A stretch of DNA of 64,000 nucleotides from a phage: sequence record PZ386980.1. One strand, given 5' to 3'. The position numbers and the translations under genes were made by a program. The notes beneath the pieces were generated by a model. That model did no database searches, had not been told where the DNA came from, and saw only the letters and a program-made list of their open reading frames with translations. Below, piece by piece: positions 8,250 to 61,807 of the stretch. Numbering within the stretch: position 1 is the first letter of the stretch; each line of letters starts with the position of its first letter.

Positions 8250-10427
8250 TTAGGCCGCAAGGGCCTTCATAGTTTTAGCGATTTGGGAAACTTCATCATC
8301 ACTTAAAGAGTTGCGATATCCGATGAAGTCGGAAACAATACGGAATTTCTTGGTAAACTCAGCAACCATTTTATCACTATTTTTTGAAGCATTATTTGAT
8401 AATACATCAAAAAGATTAGTTACTGTCCAGATATCATGACCGATGGTATCTTTTCCACCATTAAAATATACACCGCGCAATGAACTAACTATATTAGCGA
8501 GTCGTGTATATTCTTCAGAAACTTCATCTGTACTGAAGTACTTCATCATAAAATCTAGCTCAGGATACTTGATAATTTTATCAATATATCGTTGAGCTGA
8601 ACTTGAATAACCTACATACTTATCATAATCTACATCATCAAAAGCATCTATATATAAATCACGCAAAGCTTCAAAAATACATTGGCACTGACCGAGTTCT
8701 TTTACCTTTTTCTGTAAAAGCGGACGAATAACATAAAATTCATTAATGCCAATAAGATTAGCCATACGAATCAAAATATTCATAGATGGATGACAAAGAG
8801 ATGTAGTACCATCCATAGAGAAAATATCAGAACGATGCATATACGCTACATAACCAGTAATTTCATCTGCTTCTGACGTAAGTGTAAATAGTTCCTCTTT
8901 TTCCCATCGCCCATCTTTAATTTCAAATTTAAATGCTGTAGCAGCTTTAGGACGAGGAGCTTTACTTTTAACTACCTTTGGAATATAGCTTTTAACTAAA
9001 TTTTCAATTTCTGACAAATAATGAATGTTAACTTCATCACTTTCAAACATTGCCATAATATCAGGTAGTAAATCAATCTGCGATTCTACTTCCGGATTAA
9101 TAAACAGAAGACGCTCATTGTGATGAATATTCAAAGTGTTATTAAATTCACTATCATCTAACGCGTGTGCTAATCCACGGACAATATTAACACGATTTTT
9201 AATATTATCAATAACGATATTAATTTTTGTTGTATTAATACCAAACAGACGATAACTTGATGCAACGGCTGAAGTTTCATGACTTTGCTTAATGCGTTTC
9301 AGTCGAGGGTCAAGATTTACTTCATACACCACGCCTGCATTACATAACTTACTGTCAGGTTCAAACATGCTCTGCATCTTTTTATATGACAGATTTTTAG
9401 TCGTGAATTTGACTGAATTACTAATCATATAATCTCGAGCAGAATACCCCATCTTCATCAATTCACGATATGTGTGACGGGGAGATGTTGATTCTTTAAA
9501 TCGTTTTACATCTTCATTAAATGCTTTCTCACTGAGTTCTTTAACTCGTTCAATAATATTTTTACGAGTACGATCATCCAGCGAAAGAGCCTCGCGAGAT
9601 GGAGCAATATCAAGTGAACCCATTGGAAACTTAATGTAATTCACTTCATTGCGAATGCTTAGCCAGTTACGGTCTCTAATAACACCATCGATAGGATAAA
9701 CAATACCGCCATAGATAGCATATAATCCACCACGATCTGGCCAGTATCTTTCTGGATTTACGCCATAATAATCATCAAAATCCGGAAAATAATCAATTTC
9801 GCGGTCAAGACCATTAATGATAGCCAAATCTTTGAACGGTCGCATGATATAAGAAACTTCATAAGCAAAGTTTCTAAAGTCTTTTTCTTCAACTGGAACT
9901 ACGATTTCAATACCAGTTTTATCATCTGGACCCATTTCTTTTACGAATGTAGGTTTAATCTGTGGGCCATCACCATCCATGTAAGCTACATAACCACGAA
10001 TTTCACCTTTATGATACGAAGTAATACTAAACGTATCAGTATAACTAAACGGAGATTTAGAACCTAAACCAAATCCGCCAATGAAATCGTTAGATTCAGC
10101 TTTAGATGAACTGAAGTATGAATTATACAAACCAGGAGAATTATCATCACCCTGAATATCAAAATCACTCATACCCGGACCAAAATCTCGGCAAACAAAT
10201 CGTGGATCTAAACGTCCAGGAACTTGAATGATAAATTTTTCAGGATTTCCATTGAGAGCATGGGCATCAATCATGTTGGTAATCAATTCACGGACTACTG
10301 CGCGAATTTTGTTTGTATACAAATCAGACGACAGAATTTTAAATACTTTAGGAGATGCTGTGATGCTAAATGCTTTTGATTTAGAACCATTACCAAGAAT
10401 TGTTTCTTTTTCAGTGGTGATAATCAT
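8250..10427 (-). CDS. rIIA: rIIA rapid-lysis protein (GHKL-type ATPase fold)
   Basis: 725 aa, [56 protein letters not shown]...; same length as T4 rIIA. Confidence 0.92.
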
Positions 10428-10437
10428 AATTTCCTCA

Positions 10438-10641
10438 TTAATTCATATTACGCTTAATGACTTCAGCAACTTCTAGTAGTTCATCTTTAGTTGCGGTGTC
10501 GGATTGAATTTTATCTCTAATATCTTTAAAGCGGTTTTTAAATTCTTCGGCTTCTCCCATATCGAAAAAGCGTTGAATGATTCTATATTCTCGATGAACT
10601 GCTTTATCAAAAAGTTCTAAATTTACTCTATATGATTTCAT
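10438..10641 (-). CDS. hypothetical protein upstream of rIIA (rIIA.1 position, 67 aa)
   Basis: ORF track; ATG at 10639-10641. Confidence 0.5.
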
Positions 10642-10654
10642 TTCAATATCCTCA

Positions 10655-10700
10655 TTTGCCCAATTAATTATACCACATCCTTGTGGTAAAGTAAACTACT
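10655..10700 (-). promoter_or_regulatory. early promoter for the rIIA.1-rIIA-rIIB unit
   Basis: minus strand GTTTAC - 17 nt - GTGGTATAATTA; the ~30-bp core recurs at 57689-57720. Confidence 0.5.
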
Positions 10701-53457: not shown

Positions 53458-53943
53458 TCAAGTATTGTAAAACATTTGATTCAATCGCTTATATTGCCGA
53501 ATCTTTTGGTCAGAAAAAGAAATTTGGGTTTCAAGCCATTCAATATATTCTGCCGCAGCTTGCATCAAATTTCCTTCATAGCCATCGTTATTTTCTTGTG
53601 CAGCTAATTTAGCTAATGCGTATGAAATACGTTCACCTTGAAAATCAGCTTTAGGCTTCTGAACAACTTGATTAGTTCTCTCTACAACTTCTTCAATTTC
53701 GCCATTTTCTACTGATTCAGTATTCCACAAGCACCAATACGTAATTGGCTTATCGTAGATGTTAATAATCTTTCCATCAGAAAGTTCAATTTCAATAATT
53801 CCAGTATCAGGCTCTATATCATCTTCACATTCTTTTGCAAGTTCACGAACTTTAAAGACAGTACCTGCACTAAGTTCCGGCCAGTAATTACACAGCCCTA
53901 TATCAGCACGATTAATTCTAAACCACTTATCTACTGTAATCAT
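53458..53943 (-). CDS. possible Pin protease inhibitor (161 aa from second Met)
   Basis: size and position next to gene 49 match T4 pin; sequence not verified. Confidence 0.4.
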   Translation of the reverse strand: MITVDKWFRINRADIGLCNYWPELSAGTVFKVRELAKECEDDIEPDTGIIEIELSDGKIINIYDKPITYWCLWNTESVENGEIEEVVERTNQVVQKPKADFQGERISYALAKLAAQENNDGYEGNLMQAAAEYIEWLETQISFSDQKIRQYKRLNQMFYNT

Positions 53944-54066: not shown

Positions 54067-54387
54067 TTATAGCGTAATCCATTCTCGTACTGTCTGAGTT
54101 ACTACACGTTCATGGGGCTCGACTAGTTCAACAGTCGGAACTGCATAATACCAGTCAGAATGATAAGAACCTGACCGAGATTCATTTACCGCTACATGTA
54201 CATTATGTTTTGGACTAAAGTAAACACACTGACGATATTGACATTTACCATCTTGCACCCAGTCTTCTATTTCGACAGGTTTAAGATAATCGGAAAAATC
54301 GAAATCATAGTTTTCCGAAAATGCATCATGGTCTTCAATGATTTCGCTCAGAACTGCATCAACATCTAATTTATTTTCAATAGTCAT
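54067..54387 (-). CDS. hypothetical protein (106 aa)
   Basis: ORF track. Confidence 0.5.
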   Translation of the reverse strand: MTIENKLDVDAVLSEIIEDHDAFSENYDFDFSDYLKPVEIEDWVQDGKCQYRQCVYFSPKHNVHVAVNESRSGSYHSDWYYAVPTVELVEPHERVVTQTVREWITL

Positions 54388-55047: not shown

Positions 55048-55290
55048 TTATTCCTTAATTCCTAGTACTTGTTTAAAAGTCTCGTCGTAATCAAGACTTT
55101 GGCCTGTTTGTTCTTTATGTTTGTATATAATATCACTTACTTCTGATAGCATATTTTTATATGAACGAGTTAAAGCAGATTTAAGTACGCTGTACCTATC
55201 AGGAAATTTACCATGTTCATTATAATAAGCTATTGCTAATTCACGGACTGCCTTTTCAGCAGCCTCCATATATTCTTTACGCTTGGTCAT
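55048..55290 (-). CDS. hypothetical protein (80 aa)
   Basis: ORF track. Confidence 0.5.
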
Positions 55291-55292
55291 TT

Positions 55293-55682
55293 TTAATCCA
55301 AAATATTATTAGGCATTGGTTGAACACTCACAAGTTCTTTAAAGAACTCAGTAGAGTCAGGCAATTTAACCATTTCCGGAGCATGCTTACTGAATTTATG
55401 TTTACATTGACGGCATTTATATTCAAGCTCTGGTTTACGCCAGTTAATCAATTGAACTTGTTCAGTACCGCATTCAGGGCAATTAGGAACGTTTTTAGAA
55501 GCTCTTTCACGTCGTTCAACCATAGCCATAATAGCATCCCATGCTGGAGGTTTAAAATCTAAATCGTCGCAGCCGTGAATCTTTCCACGCATTTCCAAAT
55601 CGTCTTCTTCACCAGCCATAATAATTTTAATTAGACTAGAATTACTTGAAGCTGCAATGTCTTCTAATAAACGCTTTTTCAT
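55293..55682 (-). CDS. zinc-ribbon protein (129 aa)
   Basis: CPECGTEQ ... CRQCKHKF motif pairs. Confidence 0.5.
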
Positions 55683-56605
55683 TTCAATACCTCAATAGCA
55701 TTACGTAAACCATTTGCTTTGGCGGTTAAAGCCTTAAGAACTTTAGTATGCTCTTCAATCTGTTTTTCAACTTCAATCAAACGGGCACTGAGATATTCGC
55801 GTTCTTCTTTCATAGTATCATTTCCATGATTGGATTTTGGTGTAGGTTTAAATTCACTAGGGTCCTTTAATTTAATAACAAATTTAGTTTCAAACAGTGA
55901 AAGACCATAATTCGTATTATCATCAAAGGATTTGACTACATCCATATCAGATAATAACACGCGCAAATTATAAGCCAAAGAACTAATAGTTTCATTGTGT
56001 TTATTAGCTTCGCGTGGTTTCATATACGGAAGATTTTTATATATCTCATGCGGAGCGCAAACGATAATTGACAATTCAAATTGTCCATTCTGGGACGATG
56101 GAGTGAATTTAGCCGTAACCCAGTCTTTTACATTCACATTAATAGTACGGTTATCACCATGACAAAACAGTCTACGAGAATGCTTAAAAAGCATATTCAC
56201 GTTATTATTGAATTCGTGTGAAAATTCACTAGCAAATTTTTCTTTACTATCTTTAGAAAACCATTCTTCTAAATAAGTTCTTTTCACGTCGTTAATAATA
56301 TTAAATGTAACAACACTAGCATTTGATACATTAGTCTCAATGTAGCTTGGATACATAAATTTTTTAATATTATTAACAGCTATCACAGAAGATAGTAATC
56401 GGGAACGTTTGAACCACTCGAGCAAAGAACCAAGAGAATGTGAATACGCATTTTGTGTATCTTTACAAATATGGTTTTCCCATCCAATATAGTCTAAAAA
56501 ATCACGAAGAATATTATTGATTACTTCTCTATGTCCTTTCTGATAATCACGATGTTTAGTAATAAGACTGTCAAAATAATCAATATAATGTTTACGAGTT
56601 TTCAT
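55679..56605 (-). CDS. coiled-coil-tailed family member 1 (308 aa)
   Basis: N-terminus MKTRKHYIDYF; C-terminal ~45 aa predicted coiled coil. Confidence 0.55.
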   Translation of the reverse strand: MKTRKHYIDYFDSLITKHRDYQKGHREVINNILRDFLDYIGWENHICKDTQNAYSHSLGSLLEWFKRSRLLSSVIAVNNIKKFMYPSYIETNVSNASVVTFNIINDVKRTYLEEWFSKDSKEKFASEFSHEFNNNVNMLFKHSRRLFCHGDNRTINVNVKDWVTAKFTPSSQNGQFELSIIVCAPHEIYKNLPYMKPREANKHNETISSLAYNLRVLLSDMDVVKSFDDNTNYGLSLFETKFVIKLKDPSEFKPTPKSNHGNDTMKEEREYLSARLIEVEKQIEEHTKVLKALTAKANGLRNAIEVLK

Positions 56606-56659
56606 GTTCTTCTCACTTGGTTAATGATTTATACTCCGAGCCATCCTTGGCTTTAAATT

Positions 56660-57661
56660 TTACTTAATTAACTGTAAAGCTTGTTCCAGACGATCAAGAC
56701 GATTAACAGATTCTTCCCAAATCCTTTTAGCCTGCTCATATTCTTTCTGTGCTTTATTAGAAATTTCTAGAACTTCTTTATAAGCTTTTTCTAGTGCAAT
56801 AACTTCTGGACGAATTTCTATCGGTTCAGGTGAATCATCAAGATTATCCATTAGTTCCTCAAGGGTAGTTTCTTCTTTAGGAGTATTCACAATTTCATCA
56901 CATTTTTGTTGATAAATTTCTTTATCAGTAGGTGAGTACGCGCACTTTACTTCACGAAGACTAATTACAATTTTATATCCTTCCCAACCACCCATATTTT
57001 TGAAAGGATATGTATGAATACTTTTTACAGTTTCCATACAATCCAAAGCCGTCTCTAATTGATGAGTTATAGTGCTAGCAATTGAGAAAAATTTATTAAT
57101 ATTCTTTTGGTTAGCTTCTGGTGTAAAAAATTCGTAATTCACAAAAATAGCTACTTTATTTTTATCAAGCTCATATTCTTTTACGATAATCATATCAGAA
57201 GCCAAAGGATGAATTTGACGATAATCGCCATAACATAATTTAGAAGCTGATTTTAGAATTTGTCCTTTAAAAAGTCTGAAATTGCTAATCCAACGACGAG
57301 TAAAAATATTCTTAGGGTCTTCTTTGATATTAAGATGATAAGAATTAACATCACCGAACCAATTGTATCCTATTACACCTTTAGTTCGTTTAATTTCTTT
57401 CCCAAAATTACCAAGAATATCCCGATTAACCAAATATGAAAGAAGACGAGACCCTTTAAAGATTATCTTAATATCATCTTTATCTACACGGCTAGAAATT
57501 TCACGAACTTCATGAATAAATTTACTGGAAGAAACAATACTTGCATCAATACTGCTGAGCCATTGATTGATAATAGAAAGAACAGCGTTCTGACTAGACA
57601 TGGGTTTAACTTTATCATCAATAACACTATTGAATGATTTGATATATTCGTTACGAGTCAT
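56660..57661 (-). CDS. coiled-coil-tailed family member 2 (333 aa from MTRNEYIKSF)
   Basis: track ORF over-extended into the promoter; ATG at 57659-57661 with GAGGAG SD. Confidence 0.55.
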   Translation of the reverse strand: MTRNEYIKSFNSVIDDKVKPMSSQNAVLSIINQWLSSIDASIVSSSKFIHEVREISSRVDKDDIKIIFKGSRLLSYLVNRDILGNFGKEIKRTKGVIGYNWFGDVNSYHLNIKEDPKNIFTRRWISNFRLFKGQILKSASKLCYGDYRQIHPLASDMIIVKEYELDKNKVAIFVNYEFFTPEANQKNINKFFSIASTITHQLETALDCMETVKSIHTYPFKNMGGWEGYKIVISLREVKCAYSPTDKEIYQQKCDEIVNTPKEETTLEELMDNLDDSPEPIEIRPEVIALEKAYKEVLEISNKAQKEYEQAKRIWEESVNRLDRLEQALQLIK

Positions 57662-57688
57662 AATAATCTCCTCAGTAGAAAGTAAGAA

Positions 57689-57720
57689 CATTATACCACA
57701 TCCTTGTGGTAAAGTAAACT
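57689..57720 (-). promoter_or_regulatory. early promoter, near-identical copy of the rIIA.1 promoter
   Basis: CATTATACCACATCCTTGTGGTAAAGTAAACT matches 10665-10697; CCACA/TGTGG stem between -35 and -10. Confidence 0.5.
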
Positions 57721-58744
57721 AGTTCAGTGCATTTAATGCATTGTTCAGTTTAGAACGTTGCTTCGTGAGATTTTTGACTTTTTCTTGTGCTTTTTCTAGC
57801 ATCTTTTCAGCTTCTAACACTTCATTGGTCGCTTTAACGAGTTCATCATCTACTGCCTTGATAGACTTCTCAATCGCATCCGCGTGCCATTTTTCAACAG
57901 GTTTAAGACTCGGATTTTCAATAGGAAGAAAATTCACTTTATTGAATTTCCATGCATCCTTATTACCTGAACTATACATCCAAAATTTAGGATCGTTTGA
58001 TGAGTAATTGGATAAATTTAAATTTAAGTTATCTTGCACTTCCTGCTTCTTCTCTTGCGTGACTTCGTCCTTTCTCAAAAAATCATATTTAAATGAAACA
58101 ATCATATCAAGTTCATATGTTGTTGTGTCTAATTTAAATCGTTCGAAATGCTGTGAAATCTTAGACTGAACAGCGGCAACAACATCCATATACTTAAATG
58201 CTTCTGTCAACTGTGATTTAAGGCATTCACAAATTGAAAGAGAATTTTTTGTATTAGGTTTAAAGCTAATTCGTGCAGTTCTATTATTTTCTTTTAATGG
58301 TCTTACTTCCATCTGAAGAGTATAACCATCAAATTTCAAGTTCTTTAAGTTAATATCAGAACCTTTTAATCGACTAGCAGTTGATAAAATTTGCTTTAAT
58401 TGTCTACGGAACAGAGCAATAAATCTCCATTCAATACGATAATGATTTGGATTGAAAAATCCAGATGATAAATCGACCTTACTCTGACCAACACCTTGAA
58501 CAAATAGAGGATTTTTATAATCAATAGTTTTACAGAAATCGGTGAGCTGCTCACGAGCAGTCATTTGTGTAATATATCCCGCTTTACTAAAATGACGTAA
58601 CCATTCACTGCTATTCATATACTTAAAGTGAATGGAACTATTAACTCTATCAGGGTCTAAATTATTTTGGCACAAAAATGTCATAACATCACGAGTATAG
58701 CTGGCATTACGAACCATATCTTCAATTTGAGAACGAGTTTTCAT
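57719..58744 (-). CDS. coiled-coil-tailed family member 3 (341 aa)
   Basis: N-terminus MKTRSQIEDMV; coiled-coil C-terminus. Confidence 0.55.
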   Translation of the reverse strand: MKTRSQIEDMVRNASYTRDVMTFLCQNNLDPDRVNSSIHFKYMNSSEWLRHFSKAGYITQMTAREQLTDFCKTIDYKNPLFVQGVGQSKVDLSSGFFNPNHYRIEWRFIALFRRQLKQILSTASRLKGSDINLKNLKFDGYTLQMEVRPLKENNRTARISFKPNTKNSLSICECLKSQLTEAFKYMDVVAAVQSKISQHFERFKLDTTTYELDMIVSFKYDFLRKDEVTQEKKQEVQDNLNLNLSNYSSNDPKFWMYSSGNKDAWKFNKVNFLPIENPSLKPVEKWHADAIEKSIKAVDDELVKATNEVLEAEKMLEKAQEKVKNLTKQRSKLNNALNALN

Positions 58745-58752
58745 AGTGTTCC

Positions 58753-59658
58753 TTAAGATTTAAGTAAATCAACAATTTTAATTAATTTTTCACGCTCAGA
58801 TTTAGCTTTATTACTCAATCCAGATAGTCTGAAAATTTCATCGTCATACTGTTGAATAGAAATATTCAGCTCTTCAATTTGCTTATTAAAATAATCAATT
58901 TGCTCAGAATGTTTTTCGTTACTACGAACTGGTACAGGGTTTGTAGGCAATTTAGTTAAACTGGATTCATCCGGGCGATAAATTAAAATGCAATTTGAAC
59001 CAATCGGGCATTTAGCACCAGATGAATATTCTAACGTTCCAGCTTCTTTTAAAACTTCAAAAGCTAAACAGAGATGATGCCCCATATTAACATAATCTGT
59101 AGAGTGAGCTCTGACGTAATAATCATCTCCACGAGTACTAAATTTAAAGCATTTAAGGTCTTCTGTATTATTAGTTTTAAAAATCATTTGTTTATCTAGA
59201 CCTTTAGCCAATCGAGCACCTAATGCTAATAATCGTCGTTGATTTTCCCACAAATCCGCAATCATTTGATCGAATGACAATTTCGGCATTAGTCGACCAT
59301 AAAGGTCATATCCTTTATTATAATTGCGAAGAATTTCACTCGCGTTAATGCGAGACAATGCTCCAATTTTATTAAGGGCTTTCATGATGCGATTAGATAA
59401 ACTCATTCCAGACCCATTTGTTCGCTGTAAATGTTTTTCTAATCCAAACCCAATATCAACTTTAAATTTATCTAAAATTTCAGCATGAACATCTCTGTCA
59501 ATAACATTCAAATCCAAAGTTGGGTTAAATCTATGAAAAAATTTATCTGGCTCTCCACGACGAAATACAGTCCATTCATTCATCATTTTTTTATTAACTA
59601 AAGATTTAATTACTGCATTGACATTATTAATTACTACTGACATATTTTTCTCACTCAA
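58753..59658 (-). CDS. coiled-coil-tailed protein 4 (301 aa)
   Basis: coiled-coil C-terminus. Confidence 0.55.
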   Translation of the reverse strand: MSEKNMSVVINNVNAVIKSLVNKKMMNEWTVFRRGEPDKFFHRFNPTLDLNVIDRDVHAEILDKFKVDIGFGLEKHLQRTNGSGMSLSNRIMKALNKIGALSRINASEILRNYNKGYDLYGRLMPKLSFDQMIADLWENQRRLLALGARLAKGLDKQMIFKTNNTEDLKCFKFSTRGDDYYVRAHSTDYVNMGHHLCLAFEVLKEAGTLEYSSGAKCPIGSNCILIYRPDESSLTKLPTNPVPVRSNEKHSEQIDYFNKQIEELNISIQQYDDEIFRLSGLSNKAKSEREKLIKIVDLLKS

Positions 59659-60059
59659 TTTTCAATTTTACTAAATACACAGAATATGATGGAAAAGACT
59701 ATATAAGCACCGCACACAGATTGAACTAATACCATTCCAAAGAACCAAATAATATTATCAAACAGTGTCTGTTTTACGTCGAAAGGACGTAAACTTACAG
59801 TAATATTATCACCTTTTTCTATTGAAGAATACATCTCTGGTGAAATATATTCACTAAATCTATAACCGTCTTTGAGTTCATATACAGCAATAAACGATAA
59901 ACTAGACCCCTTTCCTTGAGTTCCTGTAAGGGTATTAACTACAGTAACATCATAATCTTTATAATGCATATAATCATTAATTGCGTAATAACCATATGCA
60001 ACTACTACACATAAACAACATATCAATAAATTCAATCTTTTAATTATCAACTGTTTCAT
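59655..60059 (-). CDS. membrane protein (134 aa)
   Basis: N- and C-terminal hydrophobic segments. Confidence 0.5.
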   Translation of the reverse strand: MKQLIIKRLNLLICCLCVVVAYGYYAINDYMHYKDYDVTVVNTLTGTQGKGSSLSFIAVYELKDGYRFSEYISPEMYSSIEKGDNITVSLRPFDVKQTLFDNIIWFFGMVLVQSVCGAYIVFSIIFCVFSKIEN

Positions 60060-60084
60060 AATAATCTCAATTAAAAGGGCTTAG

Positions 60085-60115
60085 AACCATTATACCATCC
60101 TTGGTATAAAGCGGT
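60085..60115 (-). promoter_or_regulatory. candidate middle/early promoter with stem-loop
   Basis: minus strand GCTTTA - 12 nt - GGTATAATGG; TACCA/TGGTA inverted repeat. Confidence 0.4.
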
Positions 60116-60642
60116 TATGCGAGTACCGTCTTTAACCGTTCTTCAAACTTCCGAAGAGTATTCTGGCGTTCAGCTCTTTGCTTTTTGTAAGTTTCAATAC
60201 GCTCTGAAATGAGATTGTATCGTTCATTTACTGTTTCTTTCATAAAATCAGGAATTTCACGAGAAGCTTTAATCTCGTCAAATTTATCAATAACAGCTTG
60301 CTCTTCAGCAATTAAGTTATCATACATCAAAATATCTTTCTTGATGAACTCAATATCTTCTTGAGTTACACGAGATAACTTAGATGCTTTATCCTTTTTG
60401 TACTGTTCGTTAGTATCACGAGACCAGTGTAATGTACGATTTTTATTCGTATTCTTGTAAATTTCTACAATACCAATCTCATCGATAATAACGATCCAAT
60501 TCCAACGGGATTTGTAAATTTGTCCTCCATCAACAGTGATTTCACCACCGATTGAGACATCATTAAAGAACTTGCTTTGAGCTTCAGATTTAAATTTACC
60601 ATCATTGTAGTTTACCAAGTTGAAAATATCTTTAGCATTCAT
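60115..60642 (-). CDS. coiled-coil-tailed protein 5 (175 aa)
   Basis: coiled-coil C-terminus; ATG after the conserved cassette leader. Confidence 0.55.
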   Translation of the reverse strand: MNAKDIFNLVNYNDGKFKSEAQSKFFNDVSIGGEITVDGGQIYKSRWNWIVIIDEIGIVEIYKNTNKNRTLHWSRDTNEQYKKDKASKLSRVTQEDIEFIKKDILMYDNLIAEEQAVIDKFDEIKASREIPDFMKETVNERYNLISERIETYKKQRAERQNTLRKFEERLKTVLA

Positions 60643-60644
60643 TT

Positions 60645-60702
60645 TCTGTTCCTCCGTAGTTGATAGTTGTATAGTATCACAGAGGAACAGTCTTGTAAAC
60701 CA
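60645..60702 (-). promoter_or_regulatory. early promoter cassette (PeSL-type)
   Basis: GTTTAC -35, GATACTATAC -10, 9-bp inverted repeat CTGTTCCTC/GAGGAACAG enclosing the -10. Confidence 0.5.
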
Positions 60703-61087: not shown

Positions 61088-61807
61088 TTAGGATTCTTCT
61101 AAATGTCTTTTCTGAAAAGTTGATACCATACTACGATACGGTTCATTTGGATATCCGTGTTTTATAGCTTCCTTTGTAAATTTTCTCCATCCATATTTAG
61201 TTTCTTTCCAAAGCTCGAATAATTCATCTTCATATTGCCATATAGTTAAATGAGAACGCTTTGCAGCTTTAATTCCATTAATATGCTTTTCTTTTACTAC
61301 AGGATTGCTTAGTTTCTTTTTAATAATATTACTAACTTTTCTAACAAAAACTGGGTCCTTATATCGTTGCGAAGTTTTTATTGAAGTGTTTAATTTAGCT
61401 TCCGGCGTGGATGTGACCTCTTTCATCTTTTTCTTCATATGCTGTATATGATTAGGATTTTTCCATAAATTTATAGAATGCTTTTTGCATTTTATCCTAG
61501 TTTCATCTGCAACCTTTCCTCCTTCACCCCCGTATGACAGGTTAACACAGTTTTTTCCATATTTCAATTTACCTGCCATGATATATAATATTTCAGCTTG
61601 TACCATTTTATCATAATTATCAAAAACTTCTAAAACCGTTTTTGATAATATGTGGTCATTTGACACTTTTACACGTTCTATATAATTTCCACTACCAACA
61701 TACGAATCATTGATGTTATTAGTTATATGTCGACCATAATAGTATTTCTTAATACCTGTCTTTAAATTTAATATTTCAGTTTTATAGATAGTAAAATATT
61801 TTTTCAT
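61088..61807 (-). CDS. GIY-YIG homing endonuclease (Seg-like, 239 aa)
   Basis: N-terminal FTIYKTEILNLKTGIKKYYYGRH (GIY-x11-YIG-like); K-rich repeats in the C-terminal half. Confidence 0.55.
   Translation of the reverse strand: MKKYFTIYKTEILNLKTGIKKYYYGRHITNNINDSYVGSGNYIERVKVSNDHILSKTVLEVFDNYDKMVQAEILYIMAGKLKYGKNCVNLSYGGEGGKVADETRIKCKKHSINLWKNPNHIQHMKKKMKEVTSTPEAKLNTSIKTSQRYKDPVFVRKVSNIIKKKLSNPVVKEKHINGIKAAKRSHLTIWQYEDELFELWKETKYGWRKFTKEAIKHGYPNEPYRSMVSTFQKRHLEES

Follow-up and report, generated by a model that had tools for sequence, protein, structure and literature searches.

What do the genes downstream of nrdC contribute to a T4-like phage, and do those that end in similar helical tails form one family? 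The question was examined for a block of 4,964 bases (positions 55679-60642) in a 64,000-nucleotide stretch of phage DNA, record PZ386980.1, referred to here in its full length as the window. The first-pass annotation had described this block as a run of five early open reading frames (ORFs) with variable heads and coiled-coil tails, a modular family of a kind often active in host takeover or counter-defence. We consider it probable that the block is an early-transcribed part of a counter-defence island, in which the paralogous genes nrdC.3, nrdC.4 and nrdC.5, probably with nrdC.6, lie together with the unrelated gene nrdC.8. The genes themselves and two of the functions were already known; the family relationship, the shared plan of the proteins and a set of testable candidates are added here.

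The block was 100% identical to phage RB51, in which it is annotated as nrdC.3 to nrdC.8, and at least 80% of it was present in about 465 further T4-like phage records. The gene order was the same in T4 and in phage Bas37 (KarlGJung). This identity assigns the region to a T4-like phage, either RB51 or a near-identical Tequatrovirus, as its nrdC.3-nrdC.8 block, and the RB51 and T4 annotations bear out the earlier placement of the ORFs among the genes downstream of nrdC in T4. All five ORFs originally described (308, 333, 341, 301 and 175 amino acids, aa) were recovered; nrdC.7, which had been overlooked, was added to them. All genes of the block are on the minus strand.

55679-56605, minus strand: nrdC.3, 308 aa, from the RB51 annotation; phrog_1435 match (E 6e-100).
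56660-57661, minus strand: nrdC.4, 333 aa; phrog_1435 match (E 8e-166).
57719-58744, minus strand: nrdC.5, 341 aa; DUF7235, Pfam PF23882 (E 2.5e-121).
58753-59643, minus strand: nrdC.6, 296 aa from the ATG; phrog_2257 match (E 1.6e-151).
59655-60059, minus strand: nrdC.7, 134 aa, between nrdC.6 and nrdC.8; phrog_2547 match.
60115-60642, minus strand: nrdC.8, 175 aa; phrog_2274 match (E 2.4e-110).

The ATG of nrdC.4 is preceded by a GAGGAG ribosome-binding site and gives 333 aa. A 343-aa reading of this gene was rejected, as its start falls within the -10 box of the nrdC.4 promoter. For nrdC.6 a ribosome-binding site precedes the ATG at 59643, a start that agrees with all homologues and gives 296 aa; the 301 aa described earlier require an upstream TTG start that is backed by no homologue, and this reading was also rejected. 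In the T4 GenBank record (AF158101.6; L015 10067-10894) nrdC.6 has 275 aa, the conserved tail being lost by a frameshift near the end. The protein has 296 aa in RB51 and in all other homologues, and the HIDEN-SEQ T4 gene table contains an 891-bp nrdC.6; the short GenBank version may reflect an error in sequencing or a difference between strains.

The nrdC.3 product was 93% identical to T4 NrdC.3. The nrdC.5 product was 93% identical to its T4 orthologue, which occupies the same position and belongs to the same DUF7235 family; the window protein matched PF23882 over residues 1-341 with 405 bits (cut-off 30). Precomputed annotation placed PF26897 (Phage_T4_Y04OP) on nrdC.4 homologues that were 80-97% identical, and nrdC.3 and nrdC.4 both fall in phrog_1435 and in Phage_T4_Y04OP. 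Homologues of nrdC.6 carry PF26899 (Phage_T4_Y05B), and nrdC.8 is Phage_T4_Y05D (PF26901). The nrdC.7 product, with hydrophobic segments at both ends (approximately residues 1-30 and 102-133) and a promoter-like cassette of its own, is predicted to be a membrane protein that lies within the block and outside the paralogue family.

Kinship among the proteins was assessed by pairwise BLASTP and by profile comparison. BLASTP among the block proteins linked only nrdC.3 and nrdC.4 (E 1e-4). Diverse profiles were assembled from homologues in 14 viral contigs and five annotated phages and were compared with hhalign. Family by family, nrdC.3 and nrdC.4 matched with a probability of 97.6% (E 3e-12), and nrdC.5, nrdC.6 and nrdC.8 were unlinked (probability <10%). 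The merged nrdC.3 and nrdC.4 profile matched the nrdC.5 family alone with a probability of 90.0% (E 1.7e-6). This rose to 92.5% when Klebsiella phage Mineola gp080 was added, and to 95.1% (E 3e-8, 236 collinear columns) when Salmonella phage STP4-a gp082 (STP4a_082) was added as well. With the tails removed, the heads of nrdC.3/nrdC.4 and nrdC.5 were still aligned with a probability of 93.3% (E 2.7e-7, 149 columns), while control comparisons with alignments of the neighbouring nrdC.10 and nrdC.11 gave at most 0.7%. Because the heads-only match lies far above the controls, the heads of all three proteins are homologous, and, since this homology extends over about 135-150 columns, the proteins are whole-protein paralogues rather than one tail carried on swapped heads. 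The paralogy originally proposed for the first three ORFs is therefore upheld by the profiles, and the N-terminal signature on which it had been based is present in all three; the description of their heads as variable was misleading.

The remaining two proteins did not join the family in the same way. A Foldseek search with the predicted structure of nrdC.4 retrieved NrdC.6 of phage JS10 (E 1.7e-5, probability 1.00, template modelling (TM) score 0.41/0.48), a match between models which suggests that nrdC.6 is likely a distant member. The nrdC.8 profile scored below 3% probability against all of the nrdC.3-nrdC.6 profiles, and by every test nrdC.8 is unrelated to them. The idea of a single modular family of five ORFs thus holds for nrdC.3, nrdC.4 and nrdC.5, extends tentatively to nrdC.6 through one fold match, and fails for nrdC.8. 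Pfam already unites nrdC.3 and nrdC.4 in Y04OP and keeps DUF7235 (nrdC.5), Y05B (nrdC.6) and Y05D (nrdC.8) as separate families of unknown function. Here, by contrast, two of these families that were listed apart, Y04OP and DUF7235, were joined by profile comparison, and Y05B was joined to them tentatively by fold.

For two of the five ORFs first described, a counter-defence role has been published. Dsr1 is a SIR2-domain defence found in E. coli ECOR17, and a phage deletion mutant regains the ability to plate on Dsr1-carrying cells when T4 nrdC.5 is expressed (Srikant et al. 2022, eLife, PMC9391042). That paper gives no mechanism or domain analysis for NrdC.5 and draws no tie to nrdC.3, nrdC.4 or nrdC.6. 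The anti-DSR1 effect is that of the T4 gene, and the RB51 copy is known here from its sequence only. In Bas37, the gene bas37_0203 inhibits Druantia III, and its loss is reported to sensitise the phage to cloned Druantia III (preprint, bioRxiv 10.1101/2025.11.20.689424). Its product is identical to that of the window nrdC.8 at 171 of 175 positions (98%), and the gene lies between the orthologues of nrdC.7 and nrdC.9. The preprint does not name it nrdC.8; the orthology was drawn in the present analysis. Transposon mutants of bas37_0203 had a log2 fold change of -5.80 on strain CFE303. A description of nrdC.8 as a 'nucleotide reductase' (DRT1 paper) was set aside, as it derives from the gene name alone and has no sequence support. 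The label 'uncharacterised' is out of date for nrdC.5 and nrdC.8.

All of nrdC.3-nrdC.8 are non-essential on E. coli K-12. T4 nrdC.1 is a Septu inhibitor (bioRxiv 10.1101/2025.11.20.689424), and T6 gp49.2 is an inhibitor of OLD (2026 paper). Close relatives of both are encoded just downstream of the block.

55048-55290, minus strand: nrdC.1, 80 aa, 99% identical to T4 NrdC.1.
54067-54387, minus strand: gene 49.2, 106 aa, 96% identical to T4 gp49.2.

The whole stretch from pin to nrdC.8 looks like an anti-defence island.

Transcription of the block would be early, from several sigma-70-type T4 early promoters. Promoter cassettes, which the first-pass annotation had ascribed to several of the ORFs, were confirmed upstream of nrdC.3, nrdC.4, nrdC.7 and nrdC.8.

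56628-56649, minus strand: weaker promoter-like cassette upstream of nrdC.3, CAAGGATGGCTCGGAGTATAAA, with hairpin GCCAAGGATGGC.
57690-57718, minus strand: T4-type early promoter cassette upstream of nrdC.4, TTTACT-N17-TATAAT, with spacer hairpin CCACAAGGATGTGG.
60075-60103, minus strand: early-promoter-like cassette upstream of nrdC.7, GCTTTATACCAAGGATGGTATAAT.
60671-60699, minus strand: early promoter upstream of nrdC.8, TTTACA-N17-TACTAT.

The early-promoter consensus of T4 and PST is TTTACW-N17-TAYWAT (PMC4122927). It was fitted upstream of nrdC.4 and nrdC.8; the copies at nrdC.3 and nrdC.7 are degenerate. The motif CAAGGATG..TATAAW, in which a small hairpin is contained in the promoter spacer, occurred four times in the window (0.04 expected), with three copies upstream of nrdC.3, nrdC.4 and nrdC.7 and the fourth upstream of rIIA.1. 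The 29-mer at the last of these sites, TTTACTTTACCACAAGGATGTGGTATAAT (10667-10695, minus strand), is identical to the nrdC.4 cassette, and this repeated 29-base cassette could be a recombination substrate. A generic sigma-70 scan of the window was uninformative (31 sites against 30.6 expected). The cassettes resemble the promoter-early stem-loop (PeSL) cassettes of T4-type phages (PMC2839356, PMC4122927) in being a repeated early-promoter motif with a short hairpin that flanks genes in variable regions, but differ from them in that the hairpin here is within the promoter spacer.

Relatives of the family were detected by sequence search only in T4-like phages. When 1.84 billion representative proteins were searched exhaustively with an nrdC.4 profile hidden Markov model (HMM), seven matches were returned, one of which was nrdC.3. 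Dhakavirus/Mosigvirus-like loci contained nrdC.8, nrdC.6, one gene resembling nrdC.4 and a distant nrdC.5 with 23-28% identity, and were without nrdC.3 and nrdC.7. Two allele types of nrdC.3, about 60% identical, differed chiefly in the α/β domain. In protein P0056 of a 167-kb contig, predicted at 299 aa, central nrdC.5 sequence is fused to the C-terminal half of nrdC.3; such a natural fusion implies that nrdC.4 was deleted by recombination between paralogues. On a 173-kb metagenomic T4-like contig (L022, 5673-5924) nrdC.5 was reduced to 83 aa with a weak DUF7235 match, and nrdC.4, nrdC.6 and nrdC.8 were intact beside this remnant. Such changes in copy number and allele are the plasticity typical of accessory genes.

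Structures were predicted with AlphaFold2. The nrdC.4 model was the best in the family (mean predicted local distance difference test, pLDDT, 78.6) and comprised a helical domain (residues 1-84), an α/β domain (88-235), a low-confidence linker (240-284) and a single helix (285-332). From a shallow alignment, the nrdC.5 model reached a pLDDT of 42.7, and only its tail helix (282-340) was confident (pLDDT 70-93). A long single C-terminal helix was thus predicted for both proteins. Foldseek searches of predicted viral structures with the nrdC.4 model gave full-length matches at E 1e-5 to 1e-8, namely nrdC.3, JS10 NrdC.6 and uncharacterised 300-370-aa proteins of T4-like phages that infect Acinetobacter, Enterobacter, Pectobacterium, Klebsiella, Serratia and Erwinia. 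The same model matched nothing in the PDB at E <=0.001, and searches of Pfam, NCBIfam, PADLOC and PDB sequences gave sub-threshold noise only (Peptidase_C48, VatE, PgrA, BrxC, L10). On these models the family shares a common plan. The N-terminal domain is helical (about 85 aa) and is followed by a basic α/β domain (about 150 aa), then by a disordered linker, variable through insertions and deletions, and at the C-terminus by one helix, 45-60 residues long, with a heptad pattern. The heads are basic (isoelectric point (pI) 8.6-9.6, net charge +3 to +12). The idea of a DNA mimic of the Ocr or Arn type was dropped for this reason.

The C-terminal tails of the 99 window ORFs were assessed in 28-residue windows using a home-made heptad score, not a published predictor. 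The positive control, the coiled-coil protein gp46, ranked second, and all five ORFs of the block first described fell within the top 12. The highest score in the window was that of nrdC.5 (13.6). In four of the five the best 28-residue segment was 1-3 residues short of the C-terminus, and in nrdC.6 it was 23 residues short. A C-terminal heptad signal was found in eight of the 99 ORFs, five of them in the block, with an estimated chance of about 4e-4 over all positions. The p values below compare the heptad phasing of each tail with shuffles of the same tail, and the period is the hydrophobic period.

55682-55825, minus strand: heptad tail of nrdC.3, last 48 aa; score 12.6, p 0.0065, period 3.45.
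56663-56809, minus strand: C-terminal helix of nrdC.4, residues 285-333; period 3.50, heptad p 0.13.
57722-57901, minus strand: C-terminal helix of nrdC.5, residues 282-341; score 13.6, p 0.002, period 3.50.
58756-58923, minus strand: heptad tail of nrdC.6, last 56 aa, with an SGL break; p 0.0085, period 3.45.
60118-60285, minus strand: amphipathic helix region of nrdC.8, last 56 aa; heptad p 0.014, period 3.60.

Heptad-like tails had been attributed to all five ORFs. A period of about 3.5 with hydrophobic a and d positions over at least 28 residues was clear in nrdC.3, nrdC.5 and nrdC.6 (p 0.002-0.0085), so that a coiled-coil signal is present at these C-termini. Neither outcome that would have overturned the first-pass description, a lack of any predicted coiled coil or of any similarity among the heads, was obtained. 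The nrdC.8 tail carries charged residues at several a and d positions and, with its period of 3.60, is more an amphipathic helix. In every family the tail was more conserved than the head, and a/d positions more than e/g and these more than b/c/f. Conservation in nrdC.3 was 0.84 for the tail and 0.74 for the head; in nrdC.4 it was 0.83 for the last 20 residues and 0.55 for the head. The segment ...DDEIFRL... of the nrdC.6 tail was unchanged in 20 homologues.

A mechanism can be proposed from these observations. The genes nrdC.3, nrdC.4, nrdC.5 and probably nrdC.6 would be tandem, strongly diverged paralogues of one Straboviridae family. NrdC.5 would neutralise the SIR2-type DSR1 and NrdC.8 would neutralise Druantia type III, both functions being transferred to this phage from orthologues 93% and 98% identical, respectively. 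We infer that the globular heads act either by binding a host immune protein or by masking its trigger; a separate target for each copy may have arisen from duplication followed by divergence of the heads. The conserved tail may oligomerise the protein as a coiled coil or dock it on a conserved partner, either of which would add avidity against oligomeric effectors. On this reasoning the products of nrdC.3, nrdC.4 and nrdC.6 become candidates for inhibiting other, as yet unidentified defences.

Several points weigh against this proposal. Within the block, the published functions are those of nrdC.5 and nrdC.8 and not of nrdC.3, nrdC.4 or nrdC.6, and the literature gives no mechanism for NrdC.5 or NrdC.8. 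The HIDEN-SEQ tables used were those of three of the five Bas37 clinical hosts (CFT073, CFE303 and CFE331; the remaining tables are those of CFE299, CFE336 and the T4 clinical hosts), and on these three hosts the Bas37 orthologues of nrdC.3-nrdC.6 had no fitness effect. The link of nrdC.6 to the family is the one Foldseek match between models: hhalign gave a probability below 6% against nrdC.3/nrdC.4/nrdC.5, within the control range, and a merged HMM of these three run over the window ORFs did not single nrdC.6 out (E 0.11, control range). The head of nrdC.5, the one member with a published function, was not modelled confidently. The heptad signal is marginal in nrdC.4, by its p value, and in nrdC.8, by its period, and the case for oligomerisation is drawn from the home-made coiled-coil score and from single-chain models. 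Basic heads would equally suit nucleic-acid binding.

The last point belongs to an alternative in which only nrdC.5 and nrdC.8 act in counter-defence, and nrdC.3, nrdC.4 and nrdC.6 have other early roles, for instance as nucleic-acid binders or as regulators of host or phage processes, with basic heads dimerised by the coiled coil. The charge of the heads would fit such roles, as would the lack of a conditional phenotype of the Bas37 orthologues on the three clinical hosts, and no family or structure match hints at a defence-related activity. These genes are nevertheless homologous to a proven anti-DSR1 protein, lie among four published anti-defence genes and are dispensable on K-12, and they vary in copy number and allele as accessory host-range genes do. 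This alternative is judged unlikely, with enough in its favour to be kept in view.

The role of the tail was weighed separately. The C-terminal helices might serve to dock the proteins on a conserved partner of host or phage origin, or might pack on the head, rather than form a self-associating coiled coil; the heptads would then reflect an amphipathic binding face. The idea is kept alive by the strong conservation of the solvent-facing b/c/f positions, which are as conserved as the heads or more so (0.65 against 0.55 in nrdC.4; 0.86 against 0.74 in nrdC.3). The last 20 residues of nrdC.4, ending ...WEESTNRLDRLEQALELLK, are almost invariant across genera whose heads are 38-53% identical, and the period of 3.6 and the charged core positions of nrdC.8 also suit docking. 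Against it stand the periods of 3.45-3.50 and the a/d positions, which are the most conserved in nrdC.3, nrdC.5 and nrdC.6, and the AlphaFold2 placement of the helix beyond a 40-50-residue low-confidence linker, unpacked from the head. A helix that does not self-associate is, on this balance, an improbable explanation of the tails that still deserves attention.

It was also considered that the run of C-terminal helices is coincidental and consists of ordinary amphipathic helices of unrelated small phage proteins. The nrdC.8 protein is indeed unrelated to the rest, and three window ORFs outside the block end likewise, among them rIIA.1 (10438-10641, minus strand, 67 aa, Pfam T4_RIIA1). The Lon protease inhibitor Pin (53458-53943, minus strand, 161 aa) gave a weaker score of 10.2, in a segment that ends 8 residues from the C-terminus, and falls just under the cut-off. 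A chance of about 4e-4 for five of eight such ORFs in one block does not favour coincidence, nor does the stronger constraint on the tails than on the heads. Three or four of the proteins are, moreover, homologous over their whole length, so that the tail is inherited. Coincidence is largely refuted for nrdC.3-nrdC.5 and is quite improbable for the run as a whole.

Least probable of all is the suggestion that the α/β head is descended from a phage tail terminator or tail completion protein (lambda gpU fold), or mimics one, and acts as an early decoy for immune sensors of virion proteins, because the weak and fold-unspecific scores, unaccompanied by sequence similarity, were equalled by nitroreductases and by RNA polymerase alpha/Rpb11 domains, such that the head may be a generic two-layer α/β sandwich, the PDB search found nothing at its threshold, and no report of the DSR1 trigger was found in the literature; the resemblance is too weak to build on and membership is not claimed.

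The counter-defence island has a more far-reaching extension, in which nrdC.3, nrdC.4, nrdC.5 and nrdC.6 would be Straboviridae-wide immune antagonists that diversify by tandem duplication, each disabling a different oligomeric defence protein, in the way that NrdC.5 acts on DSR1. In this extension the tail-terminator-like head would serve as an early decoy for virion-protein sensors, and the coiled-coil tail would give the multivalency needed to jam oligomeric effectors. We regard it as highly speculative and do not expect it to hold in full.

T-even phages are the principal model for the arms race between phages and their hosts, and the majority of their early accessory genes have still to be assigned a function. 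If the anti-DSR1 protein has two or three paralogues of the same plan adjacent to it, these are concrete candidates for defence-system panels, and what the conserved tail does becomes a defined structural question. The block reveals no new kind of system. SPbeta-type Bacillus phages likewise have a protein, DSAD1, that blocks a defence of the SIR2 NADase type; it is described as repressing DSR2, which is triggered by the tail tube protein. DSAD1 differs from NrdC.5 in phage group and in target (DSR2 rather than DSR1), and it was set beside NrdC.5 by description, as a functional analogy only. The products gp49.2 (OLD) and NrdC.1 (Septu) and the dmd-tifA-adfA 'anti-toxin-antitoxin (TA) island' are also small, early, non-essential and clustered, each acting on one host defence. 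They are, however, unrelated in sequence, and none has been reported as multi-copy paralogues with a coiled-coil tail.

Tails of a similar kind were seen elsewhere. In Aeromonas phage Asfd_1 (L018, 14499-16058) an nrdC.11 homologue is followed downstream by two neighbouring ORFs (230 and 277 aa) whose C-terminal heptad segments scored strongly (12.7 and 14.2); sequence similarity to the nrdC.3-nrdC.6 families was not detectable.

Beyond the block, a 239-aa ORF at 61088-61807 (minus strand), between nrdC.9 and nrdC.10, matched the homing-endonuclease family phrog_314 (E 1.8e-30). It was present in RB51 and in one viral contig (L002, 99%), and was absent at the same position in T4, in Bas37 and in loci L003, L004 and L008; it has the appearance of a mobile insertion. 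The rIIA gene was located at 8250-10427. From the coordinates, the window begins approximately 8.2 kb ahead of position 1 of the linear RB51 record, so that the arbitrary ends of a circularly permuted genome lie within it.

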